Source of the DNA: an uncultured delta proteobacterium
Lineage (GTDB): Bacteria; Desulfobacterota; Desulfomonilia; UBA1062
Reading direction: 5' to 3'
DNA: 64,000 nt
NCBI GenBank assembly: GCA_963785235.1
Contig: CAWAUM010000003.1
Span: 288,001-352,000, forward strand
A model generated the notes under the pieces. That model did no database searches and was not told the origin of the DNA. It worked only from the letters and a program-made list of their open reading frames with translations. Numbering within the stretch: the stretch's first letter is position 1; every line of letters begins with the position of its first letter. Of the stretch, positions 4,569 to 60,400 are shown piece after piece. Both the position numbers and the translations under genes were made by a program.

Positions 4569-4741
4569 TTAAGCATAAACTCATAGTGACCATGAAGTTG
4601 TTTTTAAATATTAGGTCCGTTCAAATCATCTATCTTCGCAGCCGTCGGATAATGTTAATTTTCCCGGCCCTTCAAGGCTGCGAAGATAGATGATTTGAAC
4701 GGACCAGGTTTTAAAGCCTCTTAAATGCAACCTTCGGATTT
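4569..4741 (+). repeat. Dispersed palindromic element copy A (30 bp perfect arms 4614-4643 / 4676-4705, 32 nt spacer)
   Basis: GGTCCGTTCAAATCATCTATCTTCGCAGCC and its exact reverse complement; flanks homologous to copies C and G. Confidence 0.9.
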
Positions 4742-4805
4742 CAGATCACCGATCCTTCGCTTTTCATTTCTTGCCCGCAGACCTCCACCCTGCTAACAGT
4801 GAATA

Positions 4806-5516
4806 ATGTCCGATTATCTCATCTGCTGGCCTCAACTCACAAAAGGCACCCTTATCAGGCGCTACAAACGCTTCATGGCTGATGTGGAGCTTGAAAACGG
4901 CCATGTCATAACCGTCCACTGCCCCAATTCGGGCCGTATGCTCGGCTGCTCAGAGCCCGGCAGGACCGTATTCCTCTCACAGTCTGATAATAAAAACCGG
5001 AAATTTCCCTATACCTGGGAGATCATCCACATGCCGGGCTCACTGGTAGTGGTCAATACCCTGCGTGCCAACCAGGCCGCAAAGGCAGCCATAGAACGCG
5101 GTCTTATACCCGAACTTGCAGGTTACTCTGCCATCAGATCCGAGGTTAGGATAGGCGAACACTCGCGTATCGACCTTCTCCTTGAAAGAGATCACGGAAG
5201 ATCGTCACTGGTGGAGGTGAAAAGCGCTACATACGCAATTGATGGCCGCGTCATGTTTCCGGATGCTGTGACAGCCCGTGGTCTTAAGCATCTCAAGGAA
5301 TTGCAGAGATCACTGACAAGAGGATACCGGTGTGCCATGTTCTTTCTGGTGCAAAGAATGGACGCACATTTCTTCACACCTGCAGACCATATTGATCCGG
5401 CATATGCCCAAGGTCTCCATATGGCCCGCAGCAAAGGTGTAGATGTTATCGTCTATGGGACAGAAATCACCCATGAAGGCATGGGCCTGGGCCCACGAAT
5501 ACCTTGCCGATTCTAG
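4806..5516 (+). CDS. sfsA: DNA/RNA nuclease SfsA (sugar fermentation stimulation protein)
   Basis: RRYKRFMADV, HCPNSGRM, SRIDLLL, VEVKS, FPDAVTARGLKHL. Confidence 0.95.
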   Translation: MSDYLICWPQLTKGTLIRRYKRFMADVELENGHVITVHCPNSGRMLGCSEPGRTVFLSQSDNKNRKFPYTWEIIHMPGSLVVVNTLRANQAAKAAIERGLIPELAGYSAIRSEVRIGEHSRIDLLLERDHGRSSLVEVKSATYAIDGRVMFPDAVTARGLKHLKELQRSLTRGYRCAMFFLVQRMDAHFFTPADHIDPAYAQGLHMARSKGVDVIVYGTEITHEGMGLGPRIPCRF

Positions 5517-5643
5517 CCAAGGAGTGCCTTGCCCATAATATTAATCCATCAGCTGTATTGAAATAGGACATTCTTGTCCCTACTCAGGTATCAAGGCTGA
5601 ACTTCATGCTCGCAACTGATGGCATTCACAAAGGAGAGATGAT

Positions 5644-6120
5644 ATGAAAAAGGATACGGAGCTGACCTTGGCAAGAAAAGAAAATGAAAAAGGATCGTCC
5701 CGTGAAGATATGACCGACTCATCCAGGAAGACACTCACCAAAGAACCATCTGCGAACGACAATATCTATACCGACACCATAAAGTCACTATTGGAGAAAA
5801 ACAGGAGCAGGGTTTCACAATACTACTGCGCCAACAGAAAATGTCCAACCACGTTCTGGGAAGCGGATCTTGGATTCCAGTGCCCTCGCTGCGGTGCTTT
5901 CGGCCTTATCAGCTCATTCAAGGCAGACACGGCATACGAACCCGATATGAATAAGCCCGTGGTTGGATATATTGACAGTATCGGCCGGCTGTTCTGCCCC
6001 ACGTGCACAGATCGCTTCGGAATGAGAGATGATGTAGGTCTGGTCATCTACAACGACAGCGAGCCTTACTGCAATGAGGACTGCGAGGCATGTAGAACCA
6101 GCCTTCACTCGACTTTGTAA
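5644..6120 (+). CDS. Hypothetical Cys-rich, putative zinc-binding protein
   Basis: 158 aa ORF with RBS AAGGAG; CANRKC, CPRC, CPTC, CNEDCEAC. Confidence 0.6.
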   Translation: MKKDTELTLARKENEKGSSREDMTDSSRKTLTKEPSANDNIYTDTIKSLLEKNRSRVSQYYCANRKCPTTFWEADLGFQCPRCGAFGLISSFKADTAYEPDMNKPVVGYIDSIGRLFCPTCTDRFGMRDDVGLVIYNDSEPYCNEDCEACRTSLHSTL

Positions 6121-6166
6121 GAGACACCTCCCCGGATGAGGTCTTTTACGGTATAGTAAAGACCTT

Positions 6167-6899
6167 ATGGCCAAGGTACGCATCAACAGATATATCGCCT
6201 CAACAGGAGCTATCTCCCGGAGAAAAGCCGATGATCTTATTACGCAAGGCCGTGTTAAGATCAACAACAACACGGCCGTCTTGGGGGACATCCTGGACCC
6301 GGAGCAGGATGCAGTGACCCTTGACGGCAGGAGCGTTACCCGCCAGAATACACTCCTGGTCGCCATGTATAAGCCCAAGTTTGTTTTAACCACCATGAAC
6401 GATCCCCAGGGGAGGCCATGCATTAAGGATCTCATCCCCAAACAACTCCAGGGGGTGTTCCCGGTGGGTAGATTGGATTTTGACGCGGAAGGACTCCTCA
6501 TTTTAACGAATGACGGAGATTTGTCGCATTCTCTGCATCACCCATCTTTCCATATTCCAAAGGTCTATCTGGTCAACGTTACACCCAAGGCCTCCCCTGA
6601 GGCTATGAAGCAAATGGAAACAGGCATTTTTCTCGATGGCAGAAAGACGCTGCCGGCAAAGGTGACAGAGGAACATGCCCGTTCTGTGGGATCCGCACTG
6701 AGAATCACCCTTGTTCAGGGGCTGAAAAACCAGATCAAGCGTATGGCCGCAGCAGTAGGGCTCCGGGTTGAATCCATCAAAAGAATCAGCATTGGTCCGG
6801 TACTGCTCAAGGGGATGTCTCCCGGCCAGATCCGCCAAATGAGCCAATCGGAAGAGGGAGTCCCTCTATAAGATACTAAAAAAACATAAAAAACCTTGA
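6167..6899 (+). CDS. rluB: rRNA pseudouridine synthase RluB/RsuA family (indel near 6857 at C-terminus)
   Basis: S4 domain SRRKADDLI, PVGRLDFDAEGLLILTNDG; downstream of scpAB in many genomes. Confidence 0.8.
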
Positions 6900-6923
6900 C
6901 ATGTGCATGGAGGTCTTTATAAT
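6896..6923 (+). promoter_or_regulatory. sigma70 promoter of ihfB
   Basis: TTGACA-16 bp-TATAAT consensus 35 bp upstream of ATG. Confidence 0.8.
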
Positions 6924-6957
6924 CTATGAATAATTATATAAATGTAGGAGGAGATAC

Positions 6958-7239
6958 ATGAACAAATCGGAACTGATTGAAGAACTTTCCATGCGCATGG
7001 CTCTCCACCCGAAAAAGGCAGAGGCCTTGGTGAACTCCATCCTCAACTCCATGATTTTTGCCATGAAAGGCAAGCGTCGGGTCGAGATCCGTGGGTTCGG
7101 AAGCTTTGTCATGAGGGATTACAAACCTTATATCGGGAGGAATCCAAAGAGTGGGGAGAAAATCCAGGTAAAGACAAAAACCCTGCCCTTCTTTAAATCC
7201 GGGAAGGACATGAGAGATCAGGTCAACGGCAAGGCCTGA
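6958..7239 (+). CDS. ihfB: Integration host factor beta / HU family
   Basis: MNKSELI, RVEIRGFGSF, GRNPKSGE, PFFKSGK; RBS AGGAGG. Confidence 0.9.
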   Translation: MNKSELIEELSMRMALHPKKAEALVNSILNSMIFAMKGKRRVEIRGFGSFVMRDYKPYIGRNPKSGEKIQVKTKTLPFFKSGKDMRDQVNGKA

Positions 7240-7281
7240 TAACCATCCAAAAGCTCAGCCTCTATTTTTTTGTATTTGAGA

Positions 7282-7321
7282 GCGTCTATATATTGACGCA
7301 TATGATTTTGTATGGTATAGG
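7282..7321 (+). promoter_or_regulatory. sigma70 promoter (TTGACG-17-TATAGG) overlapped by palindrome GCGTC-N8-GACGC (FleQ-box-like)
   Basis: GTCTATATATTGAC 7284-7297 covers the -35 hexamer. Confidence 0.55.
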
Positions 7322-7335
7322 TACTCTACAAATTT

Positions 7336-8739
7336 ATGGGTAATCAATCTATACTCATTGTAGACGATGAGATCCAGAATCGAGAGTACCTTTCTGAGAT
7401 CCTCTCCGATGAGGGATACGCCATCACTACCGCCGTCAGCGGTAATGACGCCATCAATAAGCTTACACAGGATTCATTCCAGGTGGTGCTCACTGATCTC
7501 CAGATGCCTGATATTGACGGGCTCGGTGTAATTAAATACCTCATAGATAACTCTCTGAATACCATCGGCATCCTGTATACGGGCTATGCCTCGGTAAAAA
7601 CGGCAGTCGATGCCATGAAACTCGGGGCCTTTGACTACATCACCAAGCCCTTCAAGGCCGAAGAGATAAAGGTGGTAGTCAAAAAGGCGCTGGACCACCT
7701 CGCTTTGCAGGAGGAGAACACCTATCTGAAACAGCAGCTCAAGGCCCGTTACAAGTTCGAGAACATCGTGGGGACTTCCGACAAGATGCAGAAGGTCTTC
7801 AGCCTCATCGACAAGGTCGCCTCTACAGACTCCACAGTCCTGATACTTGGGGAATCGGGAACAGGCAAAGAGCTTGTTGCACGGGCACTGCATTATAATT
7901 CCATGAGATCCACCAATGCATTTGTCCCAGTGAACTGCGGAGCCATTCCTGAAGAGCTGCTGGAGAGCGAACTCTTCGGACATGAAAAAGGTGCCTTCAC
8001 CGGCGCATTCAGGACAAGGATCGGCAGATTCGAGCTTGCCTGCGGAGGCAGTATATTCCTGGATGAAATCTCCGAGATGAGCCCGAACCTCCAGGTAAAA
8101 CTGCTCAGAGTCATCCAGGAGCGCGAGTTCGAGCGCGTCGGCGGAGTAAAGACCATCAGGGTTGATGTACGGATCATCGCTGCAACGAACAAGAACCTCG
8201 AAGAAGAAGTTGGGCAAGGCAGATTCCGGGAAGACCTCTACTACCGGCTCAATGTCATACCTGTTCAGCTCCCCCCTCTGAGGGAAAGGACTGATGACAT
8301 ACCGCTGCTCATCAAACACTTCCTTGATAAATTTTTAAACGGCAAGTCGTCCAAAAAGGTAGAATTCAGCAAGAAGACGATACCCGCACTCATGCGCTAT
8401 CGCTGGCCCGGCAATGTACGCGAGCTGGAAAACCTGGTTGAACGCATGTTTGTTTTAAGCGATTCTCCCATTATTGATATTGCAGACCTGCCGGAGAAAG
8501 TACTCACCGGGGCCACACTGGAAGCATCGGCAACCCCCCAGTTCGATCTGCCCGAGACAGGCATCGACCTTTCCTCAGCAGTCAATGAATTCGAGAGAAG
8601 CATCATCGTCCAGGCCCTCAATAAGAGTAATTGGGTTAAAAACCGTGCAGCTAAACTCCTCCATGTGAACAGAACTACGCTGGTGGAAAAGATCAAGAAA
8701 CAGAAACTCCAGAAACCATCAGAATCAAATATCAGCTGA
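7336..8739 (+). CDS. sigma54-dependent response regulator, FleQ/FlrA-like (REC-AAA+-HTH)
   Basis: REC domain, [25 protein letters not shown]-terminal NRTTLVEK; upstream of flagellar genes. Confidence 0.85.
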
Positions 8740-8805
8740 CTCAACCCCCCCACTTCGCCCTGAAAAACGCATCTGATCTTGATTGCAAAGACTATTGCAC
8801 AGCTA

Positions 8806-8980
8806 TAAAAAAACCTTACCCGTTCAAATCATGCATCTCGGCTTCACCGAGATGCATGATTTGAACGGGCCAATTTTTGTTGCATCCCAAAAGTTTTTAG
8901 GTTGTGGAATGGTCTGAACCTAATGCAAGCTGCTCATAAGCTTTTTGTTACATTCCTTTCATACTTGGTTGTTCAAGTTC
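8806..8980 (-). repeat. Dispersed palindromic element copy B (23 bp perfect arms 8819-8841 / 8847-8869, 5 nt loop)
   Basis: CCCGTTCAAATCATGCATCTCGG-CTTCA-CCGAGATGCATGATTTGAACGGG; AAAAACCT left flank is the reverse complement of the family AGGTTTTT flank. Confidence 0.8.
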
Positions 8981-9044
8981 TAGGGGAATGATGGTTACCG
9001 CAGGAGTCTTTTGCAAGCAGATCAAGCCCACCTTCAAGGAAATA

Positions 9045-9060
9045 TGGCACGAAAGTTGTA
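9045..9060 (+). promoter_or_regulatory. sigma54 -24/-12 promoter
   Basis: TGGCAC-GAAAG-TTGTA, one mismatch to TGGCAC-N5-TTGC. Confidence 0.65.
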
Positions 9061-9070
9061 TTTTCATGCC

Positions 9071-11728
9071 GTGGTGAAGAACAATAGCCCTATTAAAAGT
9101 ATACTGAAGACGGTCCTATACCGTGTCCTGGTGATCGCATGTCTATCAGCCGCTCATGCAGGGCCGGCGTGCGCAGCAGGTATATATGTGGGGGGCTCGG
9201 AGAATGTCACCAGGATCATCTTCAACCTGATTGATGTGGTGGCTGTTGCCCCTGATGTATCTGAACAAAACCAGACACTGATCGTCAATTTTCCCCACAC
9301 TGTTGCTGATCCACAAGCCTTCCAGGATCAGTTTATGATCAAAGGGCTAACCTTTGACGGTACAAAGGCGACCATTACCATAAAAACCCCGTATACCTAC
9401 CAGGTCTCTACCAGACAGAGTCCACCTTCCGTGGTTATCGATTTTACTGCCAAGAAAGAGCCAAAGGCCCTTTGCCCTATCAAACGAATCGATGTCATAC
9501 CCGGCAAGGTTCTCTTGAGTGTATCCATGAGCATCGAACCGGACATGCTCCCTGAGGTTCGAACCACCAAGTCCGGAAGGATTTACATCCATTTTCCAAC
9601 AGATTTCCCCTGCGACACCATGGAGAAACTCCTCGCACCTATACCGCAGCTGAAGTTCGGCAGTGTCATGAAGATGTTATCCGGCACCTTGCTCACATTA
9701 CATATCACTGAGCAGTATACCCTCATGAAAACACGCACCGACAAAGAGAAAAGCCGTATCATCTTTGAGATCAGAGCCACAAATGCGTCGTCTCCAGAGA
9801 CCAGATACCTGAGCGCAAAAAACCTGTTCAGCGCAGGCAATATCGCCGGCGTGATCACGGTATTGGAGCCTGTGGTTCAACTACTTGATGCCAAAGAGAA
9901 GATACTCCTTGCCCGCTCATACTGGGCACTGGCATTTCCATACCAGACTCTGAGCAGCGCCACCAAGGCGCTTACCATGATGAATGCCGCCATTGATAAG
10001 CTCCCGGATGGTTTGGATCGTGAACGGATTATGCTCGAATACTGCTCCATGCTTATAAACTCAGGCCTTTCCAATCAAGCCCTTGAGCCGGTTAAGACAC
10101 TGAAGAAGTCTGCATGGGATGATATCAAGACAGAGGCCGACATCAGGGAAATAGATATATTAAACCATAATGGTGCTTATCAGGACGCCTATGCCGCCAA
10201 TAAACGACTGATAAACGAACTTGGCCAATCTGGAGTTCCTGCAGTGCTGAAAACAACATACCTGATCGTGACAGCAGAAACCTATCTCGGATTAAATGAT
10301 TATTCAAAGGCATTTGCAATCTACCAAGAGGCCCTCGCTGCAGACCCTGCACTCATCAGACAGTTCCCGGGATTGTATGCTCATGTAGGCGAGGCTTCAT
10401 TCAAGATGAACGATTTCACACAGGCAAAAGACTACCTTATCCAGGCATTCAACCTTGGTGATCCCTCAGGCAAACAGAAGTACCTCCTCATGCTGGGCGA
10501 CTGTCTTTATCAGATAGGCGAAAAAGATAAGGCACTGGTAGCCTTCACCCAGGTGGAAAGTCTGACATCAACGGGAGAAAACCTTGTAATAGCCAAGCTC
10601 AAGTCGGCACGAATCATCATAGAAAAAAACACGGATGAACATGGCAAATTGTCCGACAGGGCATTCATGGAGGTTATGGACATCTATGAAACGCTGAAAA
10701 CCATGGAAGAATATAAAGACAAATCCCTGGCCTCACTGGTGAAGGTCCGAATAGCCCAGGCCTATGCAAAGCACGGCCAGTCGGATAAGGCCCTTGATAC
10801 CTACCTTGAGGTATGGCTGAATACGAAGAAGACCGATACGATCCATCATTATGCACAGGTGGAGGCATTAAGGAGTATTATTGAAAGGGTCCGCGTCCTC
10901 CATCGGGACTCAAAGAATGATCAGATCTATGTAATTTATACCCGCTACCAGAAAAACTTCATCAAGGAGCTTTCAGACAGCGCCACACTTTTCATCATAG
11001 GAGACGCACTGAATCGTCTTGGCCATTCAGATAAGGCCAGGGCAGTGCTCGAAAAATCCACCAGAGAAGAATCCCCGTATAAAGAGCAGGCGCTCTATCT
11101 TCTTTTTGGAATCAATATCAAACAGGGCAGATATCAGGAGGCCCTGATCTGGAATACACTGTACCTTACTAACTATCCCACGGGCAAAGACATAGGGATT
11201 ATCAGAGACCGTCGTGGCGAGGTGCTCTATATGCTGGGCAGTCTCAAAGAGTCCTTACCCTACCTTGAGGCCTCGGCAAACAGCGACAGCCCACTGGCAT
11301 TAAACTCGCTTTCATATCTTGTAGGCGCATATCAGAGGCTCGGCTTGGGCCAGTTGGAAGAACAGACCCTGGAGAGGATCATCTCTTATCACGGCAAGCG
11401 GATCTCGCCAATTATAGAGGATGCCCTTTATCTCAGGGCAACCCAACTCAAAGGCAAAGGCGATGTAGCCAGGGCAAAGACCTTCTACCAGATCCTGCTC
11501 GATACCTATCCCAAATCATCACATGCCTACTGGGCCATGTATCATCTTTCGCAAATCGCATATACCCTTGGAGATCAGACTACAGCGAAGAACCTTCTCA
11601 CAAATGTCATCCGTCTTACCAAGGACCCTCTCCTGATGTCCGCAGCACGCCTAGCTTCAAACGATATGGACCTGCAAAAAGATATTACGAGGTTCAATGC
11701 GGAAAAAGCCCGGATGGGGGGACAATAG
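9071..11728 (+). CDS. Large exported TPR-repeat protein of the flagellar region
   Basis: About 885 aa; signal-peptide-like VLVIACLSAAHAG; many TPR-like helices (A..YL..G, YP.S); start placed at in-frame GTG after the sigma54 promoter. Confidence 0.75.
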   Translation: MVKNNSPIKSILKTVLYRVLVIACLSAAHAGPACAAGIYVGGSENVTRIIFNLIDVVAVAPDVSEQNQTLIVNFPHTVADPQAFQDQFMIKGLTFDGTKATITIKTPYTYQVSTRQSPPSVVIDFTAKKEPKALCPIKRIDVIPGKVLLSVSMSIEPDMLPEVRTTKSGRIYIHFPTDFPCDTMEKLLAPIPQLKFGSVMKMLSGTLLTLHITEQYTLMKTRTDKEKSRIIFEIRATNASSPETRYLSAKNLFSAGNIAGVITVLEPVVQLLDAKEKILLARSYWALAFPYQTLSSATKALTMMNAAIDKLPDGLDRERIMLEYCSMLINSGLSNQALEPVKTLKKSAWDDIKTEADIREIDILNHNGAYQDAYAANKRLINELGQSGVPAVLKTTYLIVTAETYLGLNDYSKAFAIYQEALAADPALIRQFPGLYAHVGEASFKMNDFTQAKDYLIQAFNLGDPSGKQKYLLMLGDCLYQIGEKDKALVAFTQVESLTSTGENLVIAKLKSARIIIEKNTDEHGKLSDRAFMEVMDIYETLKTMEEYKDKSLASLVKVRIAQAYAKHGQSDKALDTYLEVWLNTKKTDTIHHYAQVEALRSIIERVRVLHRDSKNDQIYVIYTRYQKNFIKELSDSATLFIIGDALNRLGHSDKARAVLEKSTREESPYKEQALYLLFGINIKQGRYQEALIWNTLYLTNYPTGKDIGIIRDRRGEVLYMLGSLKESLPYLEASANSDSPLALNSLSYLVGAYQRLGLGQLEEQTLERIISYHGKRISPIIEDALYLRATQLKGKGDVARAKTFYQILLDTYPKSSHAYWAMYHLSQIAYTLGDQTTAKNLLTNVIRLTKDPLLMSAARLASNDMDLQKDITRFNAEKARMGGQ

Positions 11729-11732
11729 GGCT

Positions 11733-13076
11733 ATGGGAATCGCCATCTTGGATCGTGACAAAGAGACGGTGAATATCCTTGCAGAGCTCATTGCCGAGCA
11801 GGGTGAATCTCCATCACCCTACACGGACAAAGATAAGTTTCTGGAGATGATCGATCCTAAAAATCACAGTATGGCGATCATTTCGGATGAATTTGTCGAC
11901 GTAATCGAAGGCACGAAACAGGTGTACGATTCCATAGAGATAGTGGCAATCGGCATGAAAGACGGCTCTGCATGCCTGAAGGCAGGGGCCTCATACTATT
12001 TAAAAAAACCCTTCAGGGCCGATGAAATGGTGAGCGTCATCGAGGCACTGAAGACCCCGAAAGGTCAAAAATCCAACAATCCGGACACATCATTTATTGT
12101 GGCCGATCCTTCCATGAGGGGGATCGTGGAGATAATCCGGAAGGTCGCTCCCACTCAAGCCTCTATCTTTATCCAGGGAGAGTCGGGTACGGGCAAGGAA
12201 GTAATTGCCAGGAACATCCATGCCTTGAGCAAACGGAAAAGCGGGCCTTATGTGGGTATTAACCTTGCAGCCATCCCTGATACACTGCTTGAAAGTGAGC
12301 TCTTCGGCTATGAGAAGGGCGCATTCACCGGGGCATACACCACCCGGATCGGCAGGTTCGAACAGGCGGATTGCGGTACTATTCTGCTGGACGAGGTAAC
12401 CGAGATCACCCCGGCCTTGCAGGCAAAGCTCCTGCGGGTCCTGCAGGAAAGGCAGATAGACCGTGTAGGCGGAAAGGCCCCCATCAAAGTGGACTTCCGT
12501 GTGATCTCCACCACCAACAGGGATATCGAAGAAGAAATAAATGCCGGGAGATTCAGGCACGACCTCTTCTTCCGGTTGAACGTGATCCCCATTAAGATCC
12601 CTCCCTTGAGACAGCGCAATGAAGACATCATCCCTTTAGCCACCCACTTCATCAAGGCGATAGCCTCCCGGGAAGACATGCCCGGAAAAGTGCTTAGTAA
12701 AGAGGCAAAAGATGCCCTGTTGAAGTACCCCTGGCCCGGCAATGTGCGCGAGCTTGAAAACGTTGTCGAACGTGCCATGATCCTTACTGAAGGGAATATG
12801 ATATCTGCAGAACATTTGGCACTAAGTGGCGACGGACACTCAATATCGGCATCCATGCCTGCCCTGGGTACAACGATCCACGATATGGAAAAGAACCTTA
12901 TATTCTCAACATTAAAAAAGGTTGACGGCAACAGAACCAAGGCGGCAACACTGCTGGGCATCAGTATCCGGACCTTGCGGAACAAGCTGCATGAGTATAC
13001 CAACGGTGGTCAAAATTCTGACGATGAACCGGCAAAATCAGAGGGCCTAGACCCGGAAGAATCCCTGGAAACATGA
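11733..13076 (+). CDS. sigma54-dependent activator with degenerate REC (FlrC/FlgR-like)
   Basis: [35 protein letters not shown]; directly upstream of flgB. Confidence 0.85.
   Translation: MGIAILDRDKETVNILAELIAEQGESPSPYTDKDKFLEMIDPKNHSMAIISDEFVDVIEGTKQVYDSIEIVAIGMKDGSACLKAGASYYLKKPFRADEMVSVIEALKTPKGQKSNNPDTSFIVADPSMRGIVEIIRKVAPTQASIFIQGESGTGKEVIARNIHALSKRKSGPYVGINLAAIPDTLLESELFGYEKGAFTGAYTTRIGRFEQADCGTILLDEVTEITPALQAKLLRVLQERQIDRVGGKAPIKVDFRVISTTNRDIEEEINAGRFRHDLFFRLNVIPIKIPPLRQRNEDIIPLATHFIKAIASREDMPGKVLSKEAKDALLKYPWPGNVRELENVVERAMILTEGNMISAEHLALSGDGHSISASMPALGTTIHDMEKNLIFSTLKKVDGNRTKAATLLGISIRTLRNKLHEYTNGGQNSDDEPAKSEGLDPEESLET
13009..13022. promoter_or_regulatory. Putative enhancer (FleQ-box-like GTCA-N6-TGAC) inside 3' end of activator gene
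   Basis: GTCAAAATTCTGAC about 70 bp upstream of the flgB -24 element. Confidence 0.45.
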
Positions 13077-13089
13077 GCCTTGGCCCCAT

Positions 13090-13105
13090 TGGTATGACAA
13101 TTGCT
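13090..13105 (+). promoter_or_regulatory. sigma54 -24/-12 promoter of flgB operon
   Basis: TGGTAT-GACAA-TTGCT with exact GG/GC spacing. Confidence 0.8.
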
Positions 13106-13129
13106 TTATAAAGCCCAAGGAGAATTCAT

Positions 13130-13513
13130 ATGGGCGATATCTTCGGAAAGATCATCTCGGAAGTAGCAGAGCACATGAATTACCGCACCTATCGTCAGGA
13201 AGTCATATCCGGCAACATCGCCAATGTGGACACCCCGGGCTACAAGGCCAAGGAAACCCTCTTTGAGAGTGAACTGGATTCCAGATTAAAACTCGCTACC
13301 ACAAGCCAGCAGCACCTGAAGAAATCACCCTCTGAAGGCCTTTACCGTACCGTGGATGACCCGTTCTCAAGGATCGGCAACGACTCCAACACCGTGGATA
13401 TCGACCGGGAAATGATGAAGCTCAACCAGAACCAGCTCCTCTATACCGCATCGGCAGATATCATCGCTGCCAAGCTCGATCAGCTCAAAACCACCATAGG
13501 AGGCATCTCGTAA
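13130..13513 (+). CDS. flgB: Flagellar basal-body rod protein FlgB
   Basis: RQEVISGNIANVDTPGYK, DSNTVDIDREM. Confidence 0.95.
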   Translation: MGDIFGKIISEVAEHMNYRTYRQEVISGNIANVDTPGYKAKETLFESELDSRLKLATTSQQHLKKSPSEGLYRTVDDPFSRIGNDSNTVDIDREMMKLNQNQLLYTASADIIAAKLDQLKTTIGGIS

Positions 13514-14208: not shown

Positions 14209-14210
14209 CC

Positions 14211-19934: not shown

Positions 19935-20160
19935 TAAACCCAGAGTATGCAATTGAATGAGACCATACGCACCCAATACACTCCAAGGGTACCTTGAGTA
20001 GAAAACTCGTGGTGAACGAAAATGTTTTTATAGGTCCGTTAAAATCAGTCATCTTGCAGCCCTTAAAAGACCGGAAAAATAGGCTCTCTCCTAAGGCTGC
20101 AAGATGACTGATTTTAACGGATCAGGTTTTTACACAGCCTAAATACAAAATCTGAGTTAA
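19935..20160 (+). repeat. Dispersed palindromic element copy C (27 bp perfect arms 20035-20061 / 20095-20121, 33 nt spacer)
   Basis: TCCGTTAAAATCAGTCATCTTGCAGCC and exact complement; termini AAACCCAGAGTATGCAATTGAA ... AAATACAAAATCTGAGTTAA. Confidence 0.9.
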
Positions 20161-20231
20161 ACATGGATACATTCAAACGCTGAATCCGGATTGAAACGCA
20201 GCCGTACAAGGGTGTCTTTATAATGAAATTC

Positions 20232-45191: not shown

Positions 45192-45377
45192 ATGAAACTC
45201 ACTCAAAATGCGAACGACAAGTGCCTTCAGTGCCGGGCCTGCATGGACTGTGACGAGTTGCAATGCCTGTTCTACGGGCACGGTGATCCGGACGATTGCT
45301 GCATGGAAAAGTGTAAATACTGCATGGACTTTCTCAAGAAACAGCGGCTCTACATGAACAATGTAGGGATAGCTTAA
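45192..45377 (+). CDS. Small Cys-rich hypothetical protein
   Basis: CLQCRACMDCDELQC...CCMEKCKYC; start uncertain (45165 or 45192). Confidence 0.45.
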   Translation: MKLTQNANDKCLQCRACMDCDELQCLFYGHGDPDDCCMEKCKYCMDFLKKQRLYMNNVGIA

Positions 45378-45520
45378 GTCGGAGTTTTGCAATTGAACGA
45401 ACCCATATCGGTTTATAAGCCGTTAGCCCATGACCACCTTTAAGTCTTTTTTTATTCTGAGAAAAAATTGAACCGTTCAAGATGGATGAGTTCCCGTGGA
45501 ACTCATCTATCTTGAACGGT
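45374..45520 (+). repeat. Dispersed palindromic element copy D (23 bp arms 45472-45494 / 45498-45520, one G-T pair, 3 nt loop)
   Basis: ACCGTTCAAGATGGATGAGTTCC-CGT-GGAACTCATCTATCTTGAACGGT; left terminus TTAAGTCGGAGTTTTGCAATTGAA. Confidence 0.8.
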
Positions 45521-47193: not shown

Positions 47194-47210
47194 GCGAAAG
47201 CCAAGGGCGG

Positions 47211-48552: not shown

Positions 48553-48698
48553 CTCAGATTATAGGTCAGTTCAAATACCCATAAATACTCGCATGCACTT
48601 CTAGTGGAACGCTAATTATATCAGTCCTGAAGGCTGCGATATTTAGGTTTTGAACGGAAAAAGGTTTTTACGACATCTTCAACGCAAAATCCGGAATT
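48553..48698 (+). repeat. Dispersed palindromic element copy E (degenerate left arm)
   Basis: Right arm GGCTGCGATATTTAGGTTTTGAACGGA, AGGTTTTTAC flank and GCAAAATCCGGAATT terminus; left arm with indels. Confidence 0.75.
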
Positions 48699-50136: not shown

Positions 50137-50174
50137 CCTTTTCCCTTAATTGAAGTCAGAATAACCAATAAACC

Positions 50175-52086: not shown

Positions 52087-52102
52087 CTATTTGTTTATCG
52101 CA

Positions 52103-52882
52103 CTATACTTCCCGAGACTTTAGGCGCCAACCTATAAGCGTAAGGCCTGCCGCAACCATGATCATGCACAGAACCTGCCCCATGCTTAAAGGGCCGATAA
52201 CCAAACCGAGCTGGGGATCAGGCTCTCTGAAGAACTCCAGAAAAAACCGCATGATCCCGTAACAGGCAAGGAAAATACCGAAGAGTATCCCTTGGGTGTC
52301 TACCTTTCTGCTCACAAGATAGAGTATTATAAAAAGGAGCGCTCCCTCGGATAGTGCTTCATAAATCTGGGAAGGGTGTCTCGGCAATGGCCCTCCATTG
52401 GGGAATACCATGCCCCAGGGTACATTGGTAACCCTTCCATAGAGCTCGGCGTTGATAAAGTTACCGATACGACCGAAAAAAAGGCCCGGGGCTGCACCCA
52501 GCGCCCCGAAATCCGCCAGCATGAGAAACGCTTTTCTCCGGGATATGGAAAAGATCGCCCCGGTAATAATCAGCCCTATCAGGCCGCCATGGAATGACAT
52601 GCCGCCTTCCCAGACGGCGAAGATCTTGAAAGGATTGGAAAGGTAATATGCCGGGTTATAGAAAAGGCAGTACCCGATCCTTGCACCTAAAACAAGTCCG
52701 AGTATGCAGTAGGTGATGAGATCTTCAACATCCGTCTTTGTCATGGGGAGCTTCCTGCGACGGCAGACATCCATGATGACCACGTATGCGATGATGAAGC
52801 CGAATATATACATGAGGCCATACCATCTGAGCTGCAAAGGTCCGAGGTGGATGAGCACAGGATCAATCTGGGGATATCTCAT
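52103..52882 (-). CDS. lgt: Prolipoprotein diacylglyceryl transferase
   Basis: RWYGLMY, WEGGMSFHGG, GRIGNFINAELYGR, RHPSQIYE. Confidence 0.97.
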   Translation of the reverse strand: MRYPQIDPVLIHLGPLQLRWYGLMYIFGFIIAYVVIMDVCRRRKLPMTKTDVEDLITYCILGLVLGARIGYCLFYNPAYYLSNPFKIFAVWEGGMSFHGGLIGLIITGAIFSISRRKAFLMLADFGALGAAPGLFFGRIGNFINAELYGRVTNVPWGMVFPNGGPLPRHPSQIYEALSEGALLFIILYLVSRKVDTQGILFGIFLACYGIMRFFLEFFREPDPQLGLVIGPLSMGQVLCMIMVAAGLTLIGWRLKSREV

Positions 52883-52943
52883 GGACTTGAGTGTTCTCAT
52901 ATCTTCCATACGCAAGTCAAGGATCTCGGTTTATTCAGGTCTT

Positions 52944-53124
52944 TTAATCCGGATTTTGCCTTCAAGATTCTGCCTTTAAGCTAAGTGAAAAGACTTAATC
53001 CGTTAAAAACCTCAATCTTGCAGCCACTGCGGGATGCTGAAATTTCTCGGTCCTTCATGGCTGCAAGATTGAGGTTTTTAACGGACCAGGTTTTTACACT
53101 TTTTTAAATACAAAATCCCGATTT
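52944..53124. repeat. Dispersed palindromic element copy F (28 bp perfect arms 52999-53026 / 53058-53085, 31 nt spacer; short-type flank on both sides)
   Basis: TCCGTTAAAAACCTCAATCTTGCAGCCA and exact complement; termini AATCCGGATTTTGC ... ACAAAATCCCGATT. Confidence 0.9.
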
Positions 53125-53240
53125 GAAGATCCCGGCAGGGTGGATTCATGAGCTATATGTCCAAGGACTAAACGATGTGAGACTTCCAGGATCTATCTTC
53201 CATAATTATTTATCTTTTTTAGATAATTCCTCATGCATCC

Positions 53241-53269
53241 TTGACTAAATCATGCTGAATTGCTATTGT
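53241..53269 (+). promoter_or_regulatory. Putative sigma70 promoter of carD operon
   Basis: TTGACT-17-TATTGT with TG extension. Confidence 0.5.
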
Positions 53270-53296
53270 TGTCAATACAGGAAAGGGATATTACTC

Positions 53297-53800
53297 ATGT
53301 TCAAAGTCGGAGATATAGTCGTATATCCAGCACACGGGGTTGCTGAAGTTGATTCTGTGGAGAGCAGGGATATATCGGGCAGCAGCATATCTTTCATCAT
53401 ACTGAAGGTCCTCGATACCCAGATGACTGTCATGGTCCCTGTTTCAAATGTTAATAATGTCGGAATCAGAGAACTCATAAAAACCAAGGGAATCGACCAG
53501 GTTATTGATATCCTGAAGCAAAGATCCGTACATGTGGATAACCAGACATGGAACCGCCGGTATCGCGAATATATGGAGAAGATCAAGAGCGGTTCTGCCT
53601 TTGAGATCGCCGAGGTACTCCGGGACCTCAATATCCTCAAGCGTGGCAAAGAGCTCTCGTTCGGCGAAAGAAAGATGTACGATACAGCCAAGAATCTTTT
53701 AGTCAACGAGATCTCCATATCCAAAAAAATTGACAAAAAAGATGCTGAGATAATGATTCTTTCCGCCATGGGAAAGATCGATGCGGCATCATCTTCCTAA
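53297..53800 (+). CDS. carD: CarD family transcription regulator
   Basis: FKVGDIVVYPAHGV, TWNRRYREYMEKIKSG, LSFGERKM. Confidence 0.95.
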   Translation: MFKVGDIVVYPAHGVAEVDSVESRDISGSSISFIILKVLDTQMTVMVPVSNVNNVGIRELIKTKGIDQVIDILKQRSVHVDNQTWNRRYREYMEKIKSGSAFEIAEVLRDLNILKRGKELSFGERKMYDTAKNLLVNEISISKKIDKKDAEIMILSAMGKIDAASSS

Positions 53801-53818
53801 ATAGAATAGGATATTCAT

Positions 53819-54805
53819 ATGAAATGGTTGTTACGCATCCTTATCGCCCTGGTTGTCTTCTACGGTTCCTTCCAATATGCAGTTGAACAAATGGGAGGGG
53901 GGATCTGGTGCATCATTCTGCCTCTCATTGCAGAGACATGCCTATTTGCCATTTTCATAACCGAATCAAAAGGGTTCAGGCTCCACCCCATGGCCTATGC
54001 AGGCGGCCTTTTGGGGACTATCCTCGGCCTCATCATCGGCAGCCTTTTTGGATATGTACTTATCGGGCTCAATACGAGCGGAATCTATCTCTTCATCCTC
54101 ATCAACACCATGTTCGCCTATCTGGGCTACAATGTTGGTCTTGCATGGGGCTCTGAGATCGGCTCTATGCCCATATTCCATCAAAAGCTCAAGGGCGAGG
54201 GCACCAAGATGAAGATCCTCGATACAAGCGTTATCATCGACGGCAGGATCTCGGACATCTCTGATGCCGGCTTCATAGAAGGCACCCTGATCGCACCTCA
54301 GTTCATCCTGAATGAGCTCCAGCATATCGCCGATTCATCCGATCCGTTGAAGCGGGCGCGTGGAAGACGCGGGCTGGACATCCTCAACAAGCTCCAGAAG
54401 AGCCAGAACGCCAGGGTAGAAGTCATGGAGATCGACTTCCCCAAGATCAAGGAGGTTGATACCAAGCTCATCGCCTTGGCAAAGGAACTTGGCGCCGATA
54501 TCCTGACCAATGACTTCAACCTGAACAAGATAGCCCAGATCCAGGGCGTGAATGTACTGAACATCAATCAGCTTGCCAATGCGGTAAAACCCATTGTGCT
54601 GCCAGGCGAGAGCATGGCGGTATTGGTAACAAGGCAGGGCAAGGAGCGCGGCCAGGGCGTGGCGTACCTTGACGATGGGACCATGGTGGTTGTGGAGCAA
54701 GGGGAAGGCTTCATGAATCAGAGCATCGAGGTGGTTGTTACCTCCATCCTCCAAACCCCTGCAGGCAGGATGATCTTCGCAGCACCGAAAACCAATGGCT
54801 TTTAG
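53819..54805 (+). CDS. PIN/TRAM domain membrane protein (YacL-like)
   Basis: LDTSVIIDGRI, RGRRGLDIL, TNDFNLNK, YLDDGTMVVV. Confidence 0.92.
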   Translation: MKWLLRILIALVVFYGSFQYAVEQMGGGIWCIILPLIAETCLFAIFITESKGFRLHPMAYAGGLLGTILGLIIGSLFGYVLIGLNTSGIYLFILINTMFAYLGYNVGLAWGSEIGSMPIFHQKLKGEGTKMKILDTSVIIDGRISDISDAGFIEGTLIAPQFILNELQHIADSSDPLKRARGRRGLDILNKLQKSQNARVEVMEIDFPKIKEVDTKLIALAKELGADILTNDFNLNKIAQIQGVNVLNINQLANAVKPIVLPGESMAVLVTRQGKERGQGVAYLDDGTMVVVEQGEGFMNQSIEVVVTSILQTPAGRMIFAAPKTNGF

Positions 54806-55470
54806 CGCAGTTATCGTTGCAGGTGGCAGCGGAGCCCGGTTCGGCCTGAAAAAACAGTTTCTTGATCTTCTTGGAATTCCTGTCCTGAAAAGGACGGTAT
54901 CCTGCTTTGATGCCCATGCAGCTATTGACAAGCTCATTGTTGTTGTTCCCGAAGAAGATATGCCGCAAGCCCGGCAGATCCTCGCAGATACGCAGAAAGG
55001 ATCTCGTCATAACAAAGGGCGGCAGGACCAGACAGGAATCGGTTATGAACGGATTACGATGCGCCCATGAAAGCCCGAACGTACTCATCCATGACGGGGT
55101 AAGGCCCTTTATATCATCTGACCTTATTGACCGGGTGATTGCCGGCCTGGAAGGCGTCGACGGGTGCATCCCCGCCCTTGAGGTAACCGATACCCTCAAA
55201 GAGGTGCATGACGGCATGGTAAGAAAAACCATACCACGCAGCAACCTCTACCAGATACAGACACCCCAGGCCTTTGTGACGAAAACTCTCATGTCGGCCC
55301 ATGAAAGATCGCCCGGTGGCGGCCTGTTCACCGATGACAGCGCATTGTTAGAGGCTTCAGGAAAGACCGTAAGGATTGTTGAGGGTGATCCTTACAATGT
55401 GAAGATAACCTTCAGGGATGATATCGTTTTGGCGGAGGCTATTTTAAGATGCCGTACAGGGTTGGAATAG
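54795..55470 (+). CDS. ispD: 2-C-methyl-D-erythritol 4-phosphate cytidylyltransferase (indel near 54997)
   Basis: AGGSGARFG..KQF, GGRTRQESV, IHDGVRP, QTPQAF, TDD, NVKIT. Confidence 0.92.
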
Positions 55471-55928
55471 GGTTTGACATTCATAGACTGGTCGAGGACA
55501 GGCCACTGATCCTCGGGGGGGTGACCATCCCTTACCCTAAAGGTCTGCTGGGCCATTCCGATGGAGACGTGATTATCCATGCTCTGTGCGATGCCATCTT
55601 AGGCGCCGCCAGCCAGGCGGACATCGGCGAGTTGTACCCGGACACCTCAAAGGAAACCGAAGGCATGAACTCACTGAACATGCTTCACGAAATCCTGGAT
55701 ACGATCATCAGCGATTATGAACTTGGCAACATCGACATCAATTGCATCTGCGAAAAGCCGAAGCTCTCCGGTTATCGATCAGAGATGATAAATACCATCG
55801 CATCAGTAACCGGGCTCGACCCATCTGCCGTTTCAATAAAATTCCGCACCCACGAGGGCCTTGGCGAGATCGGTGCAGGCCATGCCATTGCCGCTCAGGC
55901 TGTGGTCCTGCTGAAGAAGCGAGATTAA
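55449..55928 (+). CDS. ispF: MECDP synthase
   Basis: GFDIHRL, GHSDGDV..HALCDA. Confidence 0.95.
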   Translation: MPYRVGIGFDIHRLVEDRPLILGGVTIPYPKGLLGHSDGDVIIHALCDAILGAASQADIGELYPDTSKETEGMNSLNMLHEILDTIISDYELGNIDINCICEKPKLSGYRSEMINTIASVTGLDPSAVSIKFRTHEGLGEIGAGHAIAAQAVVLLKKRD

Positions 55929-55944
55929 CACCTAAGGAGAATCC

Positions 55945-57378
55945 ATGGAACTGAACATATTCAACACACCCTTCAAGAAGAAAAGGCCCTTTGAACCGTT
56001 GAAAGGCAACAAGGTCGGCATGTATGTATGCGGGGTCACCGTCTATGACATGTGCCATATCGGCCATGCCCGCTCTTTGATCATCTTCGACGTCATCTCC
56101 CGTTATCTCAGGAGAAAGGGCTATGAACTGACCTATGTGAGGAACTTCACGGACATCGATGACAAGATAATCGCCAGGGCCAATACGCTTGGAACATCTT
56201 ACCGCGAGATAGCGGACCGATACATCGACGAGTTCAAGACCGACATGGATACACTCAAGGTGAGGCCCGCGGATATCGAGCCCAAGGCCACGGACCACAT
56301 CAAGGATATCATCGAGCTGGTGCGCATCCTTGAAGACAAGGGGCTCGCATATAAGGCCGATGACGGCAGCGTGTATTTCAGCGTCTCAAATTTCAAGAAC
56401 TACGGAAGCCTCAGCGGGAGAAGGACCGAGGAGATGATTGCCGGGGCCCGGGTGGATATAGAGGAATTGAAAAAGGACCCGCTTGATTTTGCGTTATGGA
56501 AGCGGAGCAAGGAAGGCGAACCCTGGTGGGAAAGTCCCTGGTCCAAAGGCAGACCCGGCTGGCATATCGAGTGCTCGGCCATGAGCACCCGCTTTTTAGG
56601 CCCTACCCTTGACATCCACGGCGGCGGCAGAGACCTGATCTTCCCGCATCATGAGAATGAGATCGCCCAGTCCGAGGGGGCCTACGGGGTCCCCTTTGTG
56701 CGGCACTGGATACATAACGGCTTCGTTACGGTGGATGGGGAAAAGATGAGCAAGTCGCTGGGCAACTTCATTACCATCCGGGAGCTCACCAAGGATGTCC
56801 ATCCCGAGGTCTTGAGGCTGCTCCTCTTGTCCCACCATTACCGGAGCCCCATCGATTTTTCCCGGGATGCAGTGAATACCTCCAGACACGCACTGATACG
56901 CTTCTATGAGATGCTGGACAGGGTTACTCATAATACGGCAACAGGGAAGGATTCACGCCTTGAAGGACTTCTTGGCGCCTTCACAACAGGGCTCGATGAA
57001 GCCATGGCTGATGACTTCAATACGGCAAAGGCAATTGCCGGACTTCATGACCTTACCACGGAGATCAACCGTGCCCTGGACCAGGACTCCACGGTATCCC
57101 AGACTGACAGAGACGGGCTTGAAAAGATCGTACTTGAGATTAAAGATATTTTTGGGATCCTCACAGAAGAGCCTACAGCCTTCCTGGAGTCCATGAAGCG
57201 CGGCAGTGTTCACATCACCGGCCTTACTGAACACGAGATTGCCGGATTTATTGACCAGAGGAACCTGGCCAGGAAGGCACGCGACTTTAAAAAATCCGAT
57301 GAGATCAGAGATTTGCTCAAGGGCAAGGGCATTCAGCTCAAGGACACCCCGGAAGGCACGGTGTGGGAAAAGATCTGA
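55945..57378 (+). CDS. cysS: Cysteine--tRNA ligase
   Basis: CGVTVYD..HIGH, GRPGWHIEC, KMSKS. Confidence 0.97.
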   Translation: MELNIFNTPFKKKRPFEPLKGNKVGMYVCGVTVYDMCHIGHARSLIIFDVISRYLRRKGYELTYVRNFTDIDDKIIARANTLGTSYREIADRYIDEFKTDMDTLKVRPADIEPKATDHIKDIIELVRILEDKGLAYKADDGSVYFSVSNFKNYGSLSGRRTEEMIAGARVDIEELKKDPLDFALWKRSKEGEPWWESPWSKGRPGWHIECSAMSTRFLGPTLDIHGGGRDLIFPHHENEIAQSEGAYGVPFVRHWIHNGFVTVDGEKMSKSLGNFITIRELTKDVHPEVLRLLLLSHHYRSPIDFSRDAVNTSRHALIRFYEMLDRVTHNTATGKDSRLEGLLGAFTTGLDEAMADDFNTAKAIAGLHDLTTEINRALDQDSTVSQTDRDGLEKIVLEIKDIFGILTEEPTAFLESMKRGSVHITGLTEHEIAGFIDQRNLARKARDFKKSDEIRDLLKGKGIQLKDTPEGTVWEKI

Positions 57379-57402
57379 ACTTAAAACGGGCCCTCATGGA
57401 AT

Positions 57403-59397
57403 ATGGGTTATAAACTCGTCTCGCCCTTCAGCCCACAGGGTGACCAGCCTCAGGCCATCGATGCCCTCTGCGAGGGCATCGAGCACGGCATACGCGATCA
57501 GGTACTCCTGGGGGTAACCGGTTCGGGCAAGACCTTTACCATGGCCTGCGTTATCGAACGCACAAGAAGGCCTGCCCTTGTAATGGCGCCTAACAAAATC
57601 CTGGCGGCACAGCTTTACGGGGAATTCCGGGAGCTCTTCCCGGAAAATTCCGTAGAATACTTCATCAGCTACTATGATTATTACCAGCCCGAGGCCTATG
57701 TACCTTCAAGAGACCTGTACATAGAGAAGGACTCCTCCATCAACGAAGACATAGACAAGCTCAGGCACAGGGCTACCAGGGCCCTGTTCGAACAGCAGGA
57801 GTCCATCATCGTGGCCTCGGTTTCCTGCATCTACGGCCTGGGTTCGCCCGAGGCCTATCAGGGCATGCTCCTTTACCTGGAAGAAGGCCGCCCCATGGGC
57901 AGGGACGAGATCCTGAAGAAGCTCGTGGAGATTCAGTATGTGCGCAATGACCTTGATTTCCACCGCGGCACCTTCCGGGTTAGGGGTGATGTCATCGAGG
58001 TCTTCCCGGTTCATGAAGATGATACCGCACTGCGCATAGAGCTTTTCGGCGACGATATCGAAGCCCTGTGGCAGATCGACACGATCAGGAACAAGAAGAT
58101 CAAGCGGATAGGACACATTCCCATCTACCCCGCCTCCCATTATGTGACCCCGCGGTCAGTCCTGCTCAATGCCATTGATGCCATCAAGGAAGAGCTGAAA
58201 GAACGAGTGGCGTTCTATCAGGCGCACAACCGGCTCATAGAGGCGCAGCGGATCGAGGAGAGGACAAGGTACGACCTGGAAATGCTCATGGAGACGGGGA
58301 GCTGCAAGGGGATTGAGAACTATTCCAGGCACCTCACGGGCCGCAGCCAGGGTGATCCCCCCCCTACCCTCATGGACTATTTACCGAAAAACGCCATAGT
58401 GTTCCTGGATGAGTCGCATGTGGGAGTGCCCCAGCTCATCGGCATGTATCGCGGTGATCACTCCAGAAAGTCAACCCTGGTGGAATACGGATTCAGGTTG
58501 CCATCCGCCCTTGATAACAGACCTTTACGGTTTGATGAGTTCAACCGGATTGTCAACAGCATCGTCTATGTCTCCGCCACACCGGGTGACTACGAGATCA
58601 AACAGGCCAAGGGAAAGGTGGTGGAGCAGGTCGTGAGGCCCACAGGTCTGCTGGACCCTATCATAGATATCCGGCCCGCCACCGGCCAGGTGGATGATCT
58701 CTACCGCGAGATTGTCAAGACTGTTGACAAAGGGGGCCGTGTTCTCGTCACCACACTGACCAAGAGGATGTCAGAGGAGCTCGCTGAATATTTCCAGGGC
58801 CTTGATATCAAGGTGAAGTACATGCACTCGGATATCGACACCATTGAAAGGATCGAGATTATCAAGGGACTGAGGGAAGGCGTCTTTGATGTGCTGATCG
58901 GCATCAACCTCCTGAGGGAAGGGCTCGATCTGCCGGAGGTGACGCTTGTTGCCATCCTGGATGCCGACAAGGAAGGTTTTCTCAGGTCCACACGTTCACT
59001 TATCCAGACGGCAGGACGGGCGGCAAGGAACATCAAAGGCAAGGTCATCATGTATGCCGATAAAAAAACCGCATCCATAGAAAAGGCATACTCCGAAACC
59101 ACCAGGCGGAGGAAAAAACAGGAGCAGTATAATAAGGCGAATAACATCACACCCAAGAGCATCCAGAAAAACATCCGTGATATTCTTGCTTCCATTTATG
59201 AACGTGATTACCCTGACATCTCAGCTCAGATCAAGACATCCATGGGCACCATCGAGCTCAGGAAGGTAAAGGAGACGATTCATGACCTGGAAAAGAAGAT
59301 GATGAGGGCTGCCCAGGACCTGAGGTTTGAAGAGGCAGCCGAAATAAGGGATGAAGTGAAAAGGCTGAAAAGGATTCACCTGGCAGTGGAGGGTTGA
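57403..59397 (+). CDS. uvrB: Excinuclease ABC subunit B
   Basis: [29 protein letters not shown]-terminal UVR domain. Confidence 0.98.
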
Positions 59398-59400
59398 AAA

Positions 59401-60108
59401 GTGTTATCCGATCTTGAAGCCATGGGCTATCATATTCGCAAGGAAGACAGCCTCACCCTCATCTACAAACCTTTCCTGTCGGGGCTATGGGACATTGCCA
59501 AGACTAAAGGCCCAATGGGTGAAACCACGACAATGACGGGGAGATCCCCCCTGAGGTTCATCGAACCCGATATGGTGGTGCGCACCCTCATGCACGGGGG
59601 TATGTTCAGACATATCACCGGGAAGAGATTTTTACACCCGAACCGGACCATACGGGAACTTAAGGTAAGTGCATATCTTGCCGCACACGGCATACGCACC
59701 CCTGAGATCCTCGCTGTGAGGATTATAAAGGATGGGCTGTTTTATTCCATGGATGTGGTCTCCAGGTTCATCCCTGAATCCAAGGATCTGCTTATTCATT
59801 TTGAGGACAGCCATACAGACAACCTTGAGCTTATCAGAAAATCCGGATTGCTTATCAGAAAGATCCACGACCTTGGCGTGTATCATACAGACCTCCATAT
59901 TAAAAACCTCCTCCTGGATAATGCAGGAAATCTATGGGCGCTCGATCTCGACAAGGCATATCAATTCGAATCACTGCCTGAATTCATGAAACAGATGAAT
60001 CTGAAACGTTTTATGAGATCTATAATAAAATGGCAGACAAAAGGCCGCATTCATCTACCTGATGAATGGGCATCGAGCTTCCTGAGCGGGTATCATACTA
60101 TTACATAG
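59401..60108 (+). CDS. Kdo kinase / lipopolysaccharide kinase family
   Basis: HGGMFR, HDLGVYHTDLHIKNLL, LDLDK. Confidence 0.75.
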   Translation: MLSDLEAMGYHIRKEDSLTLIYKPFLSGLWDIAKTKGPMGETTTMTGRSPLRFIEPDMVVRTLMHGGMFRHITGKRFLHPNRTIRELKVSAYLAAHGIRTPEILAVRIIKDGLFYSMDVVSRFIPESKDLLIHFEDSHTDNLELIRKSGLLIRKIHDLGVYHTDLHIKNLLLDNAGNLWALDLDKAYQFESLPEFMKQMNLKRFMRSIIKWQTKGRIHLPDEWASSFLSGYHTIT

Positions 60109-60168
60109 TCAACATTGTTATACTATGCCCCAGGGCAAGATTACACACCCGGCCTGAGTAAAGTTTCA

Positions 60169-60400
60169 TCAAACCAGATTCTGTAATTGAATGTACCCTA
60201 GATACTCTATACACATCAAGTGACCTTAAGCATGAAAACTTATCGTGATCATGGACATGTTTTTTTAAAAACAGGTCCGTTCAAAACCTTAATCTTGCAG
60301 CCTGGAAGAACCGGGGAAATTAGCATCCCGCAAAGGCTGCAAGATTAAGGTTTTGAACGGATTAGGTTTTTACCCATCTTGTATGCAAGATCCGGGATAA
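60169..60400 (+). repeat. Dispersed palindromic element copy G (28 bp perfect arms 60276-60303 / 60334-60361, 30 nt spacer)
   Basis: TCCGTTCAAAACCTTAATCTTGCAGCCT and exact complement; termini AAACCAGATTCTGTAATTGAA ... TGCAAGATCCGGGATAA. Confidence 0.9.

Follow-up and report, generated by a model that had tools for sequence, protein, structure and literature searches.

Seven repeat loci and the families they belong to

The stretch analysed here, hereafter the window, comprises 64,000 nucleotides of contig CAWAUM010000003.1 (positions 288,001 to 352,000) from an uncultured delta proteobacterium of the lineage UBA1062. Between its genes lie seven repeat loci, A to G, which the original prediction had described as copies of one dispersed element built from nested inverted repeats. 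All seven are present at the positions given and stand far above chance. The common architecture holds for five of them (A, C, E, F and G, here called type I), locus B belonging to a second kind of element (type II) and locus D being a hybrid relic (Table 1). The terminal motifs of the prediction correspond to real terminal repeats, the true ends of which lie about 4 nt further in, and the outermost bases are a 5-bp target duplication. The repeats are probably small transposable elements of the miniature, inverted-repeat kind (MITEs) of the IS1380 family, whose central hairpin has most likely been altered by template switching and by gene conversion between copies.

The source genome (G000; 3.9 Mb, 93% complete) was compared with relatives that include G011 (about 95% identical) and G002 (about 90% identical); numbers beginning with L denote individual loci compared, many of them from metagenome contigs and some from genomes. 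An nhmmer profile, seeded with the window copies and then iterated, found 127 type I loci in G000 and none in the reversed genome that served as control. The element measures about 220 bp and is full length at 39 of these loci. With some 23 type II copies in addition, the earlier estimate of hundreds per genome was too high. Mean pairwise identity among the full-length copies is 66% (maximum 85%), and these copies are therefore old. All 127 loci fall outside the open reading frames called in this analysis, between tandem (70), convergent (41) or divergent (16) genes, and their orientation relative to neighbouring genes is unbiased (36 on the same strand, 34 opposite); no clear leading/lagging or gene-strand bias was found among the loci of G000. 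Every one of the six frames of the type I consensus is interrupted by stops, and transposase profiles gave no real match to it. On one small contig of the genome (C9, 78 kb) there are 14 of the 127 copies, roughly fivefold the average for the genome.

BLAST comparison of 41 genomes placed the type I element in G000, G011 and G008, with a few copies in G002; within the genus, the element occurs in 4 of 15 genomes and its hairpin in three (G000, G011 and G008). Exact patterns for the type I and type II hairpins matched 3 of 122 genomes of the class, all from this genus, and neither pattern matched G002. The viral contigs scanned gave no arm match and no relative of the transposase discussed below. 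No Rfam family matches the repeats: the seven copies give sub-threshold matches to generic hairpins, none reaching a gathering threshold. The sole Rfam match in the window is a transfer RNA gene (RF00005, 62165-62237). No published description of the family was found in literature searches, a comparison that did not extend to ISfinder and that could miss a family held in supplementary MITE lists. The type I repeats form a real MITE family, apparently unpublished, whose internal hairpin is unusually dynamic.

Within the window, perfect arms of 27-30 bp occur at copies A, C, F and G, and copy G folds with a z-score of -9.3 against 200 shuffles. Chimeras with a short flank on both sides number 3 of 79 copies in G000, copy F included.

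Table 1. Repeat copies and relics in the window, with positions counted from its first nucleotide.
Feature	Coordinates	Strand	Structure
Copy A, left-truncated type I	4569..4738	+	arms 4614-4643 and 4676-4705, perfect over 30 bp; loop in flipped orientation
Copy B, type II element	8766..8984 (approx.)	-	terminal repeats AGACC..TGCA.AAC-like; hairpin 8819-8869 with 5-nt loop
Copy C, full-length type I MITE	19939..20156	+	target duplication GTAAA/TTAAA; arms 20035-20061 and 20095-20121; loop in majority orientation
Left-end relic of an older type I copy	20163..20190	-	whole copy, same orientation, persists in G011 (L135)
Copy D, hybrid relic	45374..45520	+	left end of type I, decayed (9.5 bits), fused to a third variant of the hairpin (45473-45519) with 4-nt loop
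Copy E, right half of type I	48553..48695	+	retains loop, right arm (48631-48658), short flank and terminal repeat; a stretch of long flank breaks up the left arm
Copy F, symmetric chimera	52948..53121	+	each side has a short flank and a terminal repeat; target duplication TTTAA/TTTGA; arms at about 52999-53026 and 53058-53085
Copy G, full-length type I MITE	60173..60396	+	arms 60276-60303 and 60334-60361

Insertion sites and a candidate IS1380-type partner

When the CC and GG of the terminal repeats are taken as the limits of the element, the 5-mers beside the 39 full-length copies of G000 agree at 0.66; shuffling them between copies gives 0.53 (z = 5.5). Seven of the 39 carried a perfect 5-bp duplication, against 1.5 after shuffling, and duplication lengths of 4 and 6 gave no signal in the same copies. 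Scanning metagenome contigs with a right-end pattern yielded 87 loci, of which 69 had enough sequence to either side and 46, representing 44 distinct sites, were full length. Among these young copies, a perfect 5-bp duplication was present at 20 of the 44 sites (shuffled mean 4.0, maximum 10). The duplications are AT-rich, and several metagenome copies are 96-99% identical yet stand at different sites.

Empty orthologous sites were also found. G002 lacks the element at the window sites of B, C, E, F and G, and single target sites exist in G000 where G011 carries copies. At the site of copy C, G011 has a single TTAAA and G002 a 25-bp intergenic region with no element. The site of copy F holds a decayed orthologue in G011 and is cleanly empty in G002, and that of copy G holds a left-truncated orthologue in G011, the element being absent from G002, G004 and G008. 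Copy E is missing from G002, G003 and G004, and copy A from G008. The intergenic region of copy B contains a type I copy in G011 instead, and none in G002. Two side observations concern the site of copy A: the copy and the sfsA gene are jointly absent from G002 (window 4559-5557, between short AGCTG repeats), and G008 has there a thiamine-type gene with a riboswitch-like leader. Elsewhere, one MITE copy is nested in the loop of another (L147:2500-2790 and L151), with a perfect 5-bp duplication in L151.

A candidate autonomous partner with the same ends was found in a metagenome contig, and none in G000. This contig, L147, carries a complete IS1380-family element 70 bp from a MITE copy. Its intact transposase frame of 464 amino acids scores 93.7 bits on PF13701 (cut-off 34.7) and 178.4 bits on NF033539, narrowly below that model's cut-off of 180. 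Over 15-17 bp, both ends of this element are identical to the MITE consensus ends. Scored with a matrix built from 33 IS1380 ends, which themselves range from 11.4 to 20.6 bits, the consensus ends reach 18-20 bits; ends of this form are also borne by IS1380-family elements of related genomes. The protein cluster of the L147 transposase has 40 members, and most of the 15 listed come from contigs of 1.1-2.3 kb, which fits an insertion sequence present in many copies. A broken relative, 77% identical, is present in one genome of the family, and the best plasmid relatives are 36% identical or less. Together with the target duplications, the empty orthologous sites and the near-identical copies at different sites, this element supports the proposal of a non-autonomous mobile element of the MITE kind.

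The MITE ends, of the form CCyrGATyTTGC, are like those of the IS1380 family (ISEcp1, IS1247, ISPme1). They are similar to the left end of ISEcp1, with 11 of 14 bases matching, and ISEcp1 makes AT-rich 5-bp repeats (extracts of PMC6061673), a direct repeat of 5 bp being given for IS1247 (extracts of PMC3281130). An AT-rich 5-bp duplication is a feature shared with IS1380 elements and with MITEs that borrow their transposases. As in transposase-borrowing MITEs, there is no coding frame and an autonomous element with the same ends exists. As far as sequence can tell, the family is of IS1380 type in all features open to such comparison: matching terminal repeats, an AT-rich 5-bp duplication, a short frame-less body, many dispersed copies and empty sites, with a partner seen only in a metagenome contig. 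It is set apart from known IS1380 elements and MITEs by the long, perfect hairpin in its interior, which undergoes flipping and exchange from copy to copy.

The hairpin may descend from a stem-loop in front of an IS1380 transposase gene, a weak lead. IS1380 leaders fold strongly (mean z -3.5 over 17 left ends, vs -0.35 over 16 right ends), and their similarity to the MITE arm averages z 0.7-0.8, reaching 2-3 only in one related subgroup. In the leaders of IS1380-family elements (left ends L030, L234-L244, L147 and L249), a stem-loop covers the ribosome-binding site of the transposase.

Flips and apparent swaps of the hairpin

The centre is covered at 84 loci of G000, and their perfect stems have a median length of 27 bp. 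An alignment of 22 copies shows 99.2% of stem cells paired and 61 two-sided changes, a level reached in none of 500 shuffles. A 7-nt core of the stem differs between copies, yet stays paired across the arms. The 32-nt loop occurs in both orientations (52 copies one way and 27 the other, of 79 in G000).

To follow these changes at orthologous sites, 49 loci of G011 were mapped to G000 by their flanks, which gave 44 mapped sites. Hairpins could be read in both genomes at 24 of these, 18 had no hairpin in G000 and two were not parsed in G011. Identity between the two genomes at four-fold sites, taken from six genes, is 87.9%. Loop orientation nonetheless differs at 12 of the 24 shared sites, which amounts to saturation. 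In 22 pairs (594 columns), 56 arm differences are compensated, vs 27 confined to one arm.

Changes of the core were compared in 23 pairs, one rearranged site being left out; the core had changed in 12 and was unchanged in 10. In the core-changed pairs, loop identity is 0.675, against a background of 0.663 for unrelated copies; in the 10 unchanged pairs it is 0.856 (difference p 0.004). Identity of the long flank is above its background of 0.64 in both groups (0.75 changed, 0.83 unchanged), and flips are equally common without a swap (6/10) and with one (6/12). With loop identity at background, flanks above it and flips independent, stem and loop appear to be replaced together by tracts centred on the hairpin, flipping being a separate event.

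In two metagenome copies (L154 and L227), the left and right arms come from two different known variants, as expected of recent exchange. Changes within the conserved boxes of the stem are likewise mirrored on both arms, which indicates that arm matching needs no consensus and argues against a strict site-specific enzyme. Seven copies in G000 have no hairpin, each with a different break point, as in slippage; precise hairpin excision was looked for in G000 and not found. Contigs from four DNA sequencing runs, short and mixed, did not resolve flips at a single site.

A repair defect specific to the hairpin genomes was considered and set aside, since xseA and mutS are present in all five genomes tested and sbcD is unfound in hairpin and non-hairpin genomes alike. 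No sbcD was found in G000, G011 and G008, nor in 10 other genomes of the genus (13 of its 15), and a match is present in 61 of 70 genomes of the sister family. Lack of sbcD may at most permit such hairpins; it does not explain them. The mutS gene of G000 (C3:202681-205204, minus strand, outside the window) is split over two frames and whole in G011, G008, G002 and G004; the split may be an assembly error or a recent frameshift.

Mechanism, conserved boxes and alternatives

In the sequence of events that we favour, an IS1380-type DDE transposase acting in trans would recognise the ends of about 15 bp and place the element, 220 bp long, in AT-rich DNA between genes, with 5 bp of target duplicated; ends, duplication and partner are read from the sequence and the activity of the enzyme is presumed. 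The insertions in G000 are old and their ends have since decayed. After insertion, polymerase template switching between the arms would keep these matched and flip the loop with no dedicated enzyme. Gene conversion from other copies, which likewise calls for no dedicated enzyme, would replace stem and loop together, sometimes with part of the flank, as the orthologue pairs suggest, and slippage would delete the hairpin imprecisely. Arm homogenisation and spacer inversion by template switching are known at inverted repeats, among them E. coli quasi-palindromes and chloroplast loop inversions. The repeats resemble such systems in their matched arms and reversibly inverted spacer, both of which template switching produces (extracts of PMC8604942). 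They differ in a spacer of 32 nt, in an orientation randomised between sister species and in whole hairpins exchanged between loci.

As a family, this is one more lineage-specific MITE of one uncultured genus. Its roughly 80 hairpins per genome and their sister-species orthologues amount to a natural assay that counts loop inversion, arm matching and conversion between copies directly, in a bacterium where no sbcD was found. They also allow a concrete test of the reason for which conserved blocks persist around a variable paired part in REPIN-like hairpins. The analysis adds to the picture an intact partner element, counts at orthologous sites, a second shell that carries the same boxes and an end-like site within the arms.

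The last two observations concern the stem. Its outer and inner boxes are 93% and 97% conserved among the 39 paralogues, the ends, flanks and loop 77-82% and the 7-nt core 69%. Orthologue pairs follow the same order, and in the unswapped pairs (n = 9) 2 of 180 box columns have changed on both arms. The type I boxes and the adjacent A/T tracts recur in stand-alone hairpins and in the type II family, which has other ends and a 5-nt loop that is found in both orientations across copies. The type II ends resemble, from sequence, those of IS1182/IS5 elements and not those of IS1380, a label obtained by reading the IS1182 loci of G000; no partner element of type II was found. Of all internal sites of the type I element, core plus inner box best matches the 33-end IS1380 matrix, with a median of 9.6 bits in the arms of G000 (11.4-20.6 for real ends) where chance would give 0.04 such sites, a match noticed after the fact and counting as one independent observation. 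It suggests that the arms hold cryptic transposase sites.

Several points weigh against a MITE whose hairpin is reshaped by template switching and conversion. Unbiased arm matching predicts a whole stem drifting like the flanks, and the boxes are conserved above neutral. Template-switch inversions in yeast genes span 2-5 bp (extracts of PMC8604942), vs the 32-nt loop here. The G011 loci compared were taken from top BLAST matches, which favours intact stems on the G011 side. As to the partner, no IS1380 transposase was found in G000 or in 14 other genomes of the genus, the L147 element shares no detectable DNA with the MITE beyond the ends, and the sequences on either side of it (TTTAT/TTGAA) fall short of a perfect duplication. 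Remnants of a transposase within the MITE were sought and rejected: in local alignment to the L147 element, 179 and 435 of 500 shuffles scored as high as the MITE did, and a faint transposase-profile match (best E 0.002, consensus E 0.4) was put down to chance. With no interior homology detected and no such transposase found in the genus, the L147 element is a compatible mobiliser and not a proven parent.

The conserved boxes could instead mean that the hairpin is a separate selfish unit inside a MITE shell that is otherwise as described. A sequence-specific enzyme would rewrite it, most plausibly the IS1380 transposase acting at the end-like arm sites, and breaks repaired from the sister or from another copy would yield flips, swaps and a hypervariable core. 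We regard this as unlikely, and hold the same doubt about its fuller form, in which the hairpin is a parasite of MITEs: a unit of about 90 bp with cryptic IS1380-like ends in its arms, housed in at least two unrelated shells and rewritten in place, probably by the transposase. The idea accounts for boxes conserved above neutral next to a core below it, and for the same boxes in two unrelated shells and in stand-alone hairpins; the inner match to the IS1380-end matrix, though post hoc, agrees with it, as does the use of secondary end-like sites by IS1380 transposases (extracts of PMC9330008). It fares worse on the units themselves. Only 1 of 186 inner units (G000, metagenome loci and G011) has no recognisable outer box; an independent inner mini-element was sought and not found; no truncated copy in the 127-locus list of G000 begins or ends at the inner site; and the seven hairpin-less copies have seven break points. 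Simple cutting and repair would moreover be expected to favour loss of the cut site, not its conservation. If true, the hairpin as parasite would be a case of enzyme-driven concerted evolution with a hypervariable 7-nt core, and rewriting through cryptic inner ends would be a new behaviour for a transposase family that spreads resistance genes by end misrecognition. Host selection, by which copies would be kept as two-way terminators, RNA stabilisers or binding sites of a host protein, would also conserve the boxes, and they are indeed nearly frozen in unswapped pairs. The 41 loci between convergent genes are 32% of all loci in regions that hold 12% of intergenic bases, divergent regions have 16 of 127 loci with 23% of these bases, and A and T tracts flank the stem. 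Depletion near promoters is, however, expected for any insertion, the loci show no orientation bias relative to genes, and the loop flips freely. The type I hairpin is missing in G000 at 18 of the 44 mapped G011 sites, G002 has neither hairpin pattern despite being about 90% identical, and the transcribed strand shows no clear preference for G-U pairs (11 vs 6 A-C, 41 copies). We give host selection little credence, and the protein-bound cruciform site proposed originally could hold in a weak form, given the above-neutral conservation of the two stem boxes.

A likeness to REPINs had also been proposed, and it holds for the central hairpin. Like REPINs (Bertels and Rainey, extracts of PMC3337134), this is an extragenic hairpin of some 86-90 bp with conserved blocks, a variable complementary part and A/T runs at its base. 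Unlike them, it sits in a DDE-type MITE, the whole element having terminal repeats and 5-bp duplications, and no RAYT is flanked by these repeats. REPs are themselves short imperfect palindromes; none was seen on inspection of the arms, where the variable core pairs with the other arm. We hold it very improbable that a RAYT (Y1/HUH) nuclease moves the hairpin as a REPIN. One RAYT-like gene of G000 has orthologues of 96% and 91% identity in G011 and G008, the other hairpin genomes, but also orthologues of 67-75% in seven hairpin-less genomes of the genus. A RAYT partner, suggested by five genomes, was accordingly rejected on 122. No arm is present in the loci of either RAYT-like gene of G000 or of their relatives in G011 and G008, and the flanks of further RAYT orthologues (4 of 11 loci scanned) carry no such repeats. 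One RAYT-like gene of G000 (L023, C1:221771-222109) has short repeats of its own on both sides, unrelated to the type I family; a long hairpin at C1:746709-746788 may be a REPIN-like repeat related to them.

Finally, the loop might be an invertible switch worked by a tyrosine recombinase at the box-core-box sites, which we consider most improbable. The spacing of box, 7 nt and box resembles tyrosine-recombinase sites, the cores always match and both loop orientations are common; the two sites, however, are about 60 bp apart, too close for normal synapsis. The 5-nt loop of type II flips too, hairpin deletions are imprecise, and no recombinase specific to the three hairpin genomes was found among 30 of 57 matches compared in five genomes. 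A 210-amino-acid tyrosine recombinase without N-terminal domain is encoded in AT-rich accessory DNA of both G000 (L314, C5:581574-582080) and G011 (L311), the two being 93% identical.

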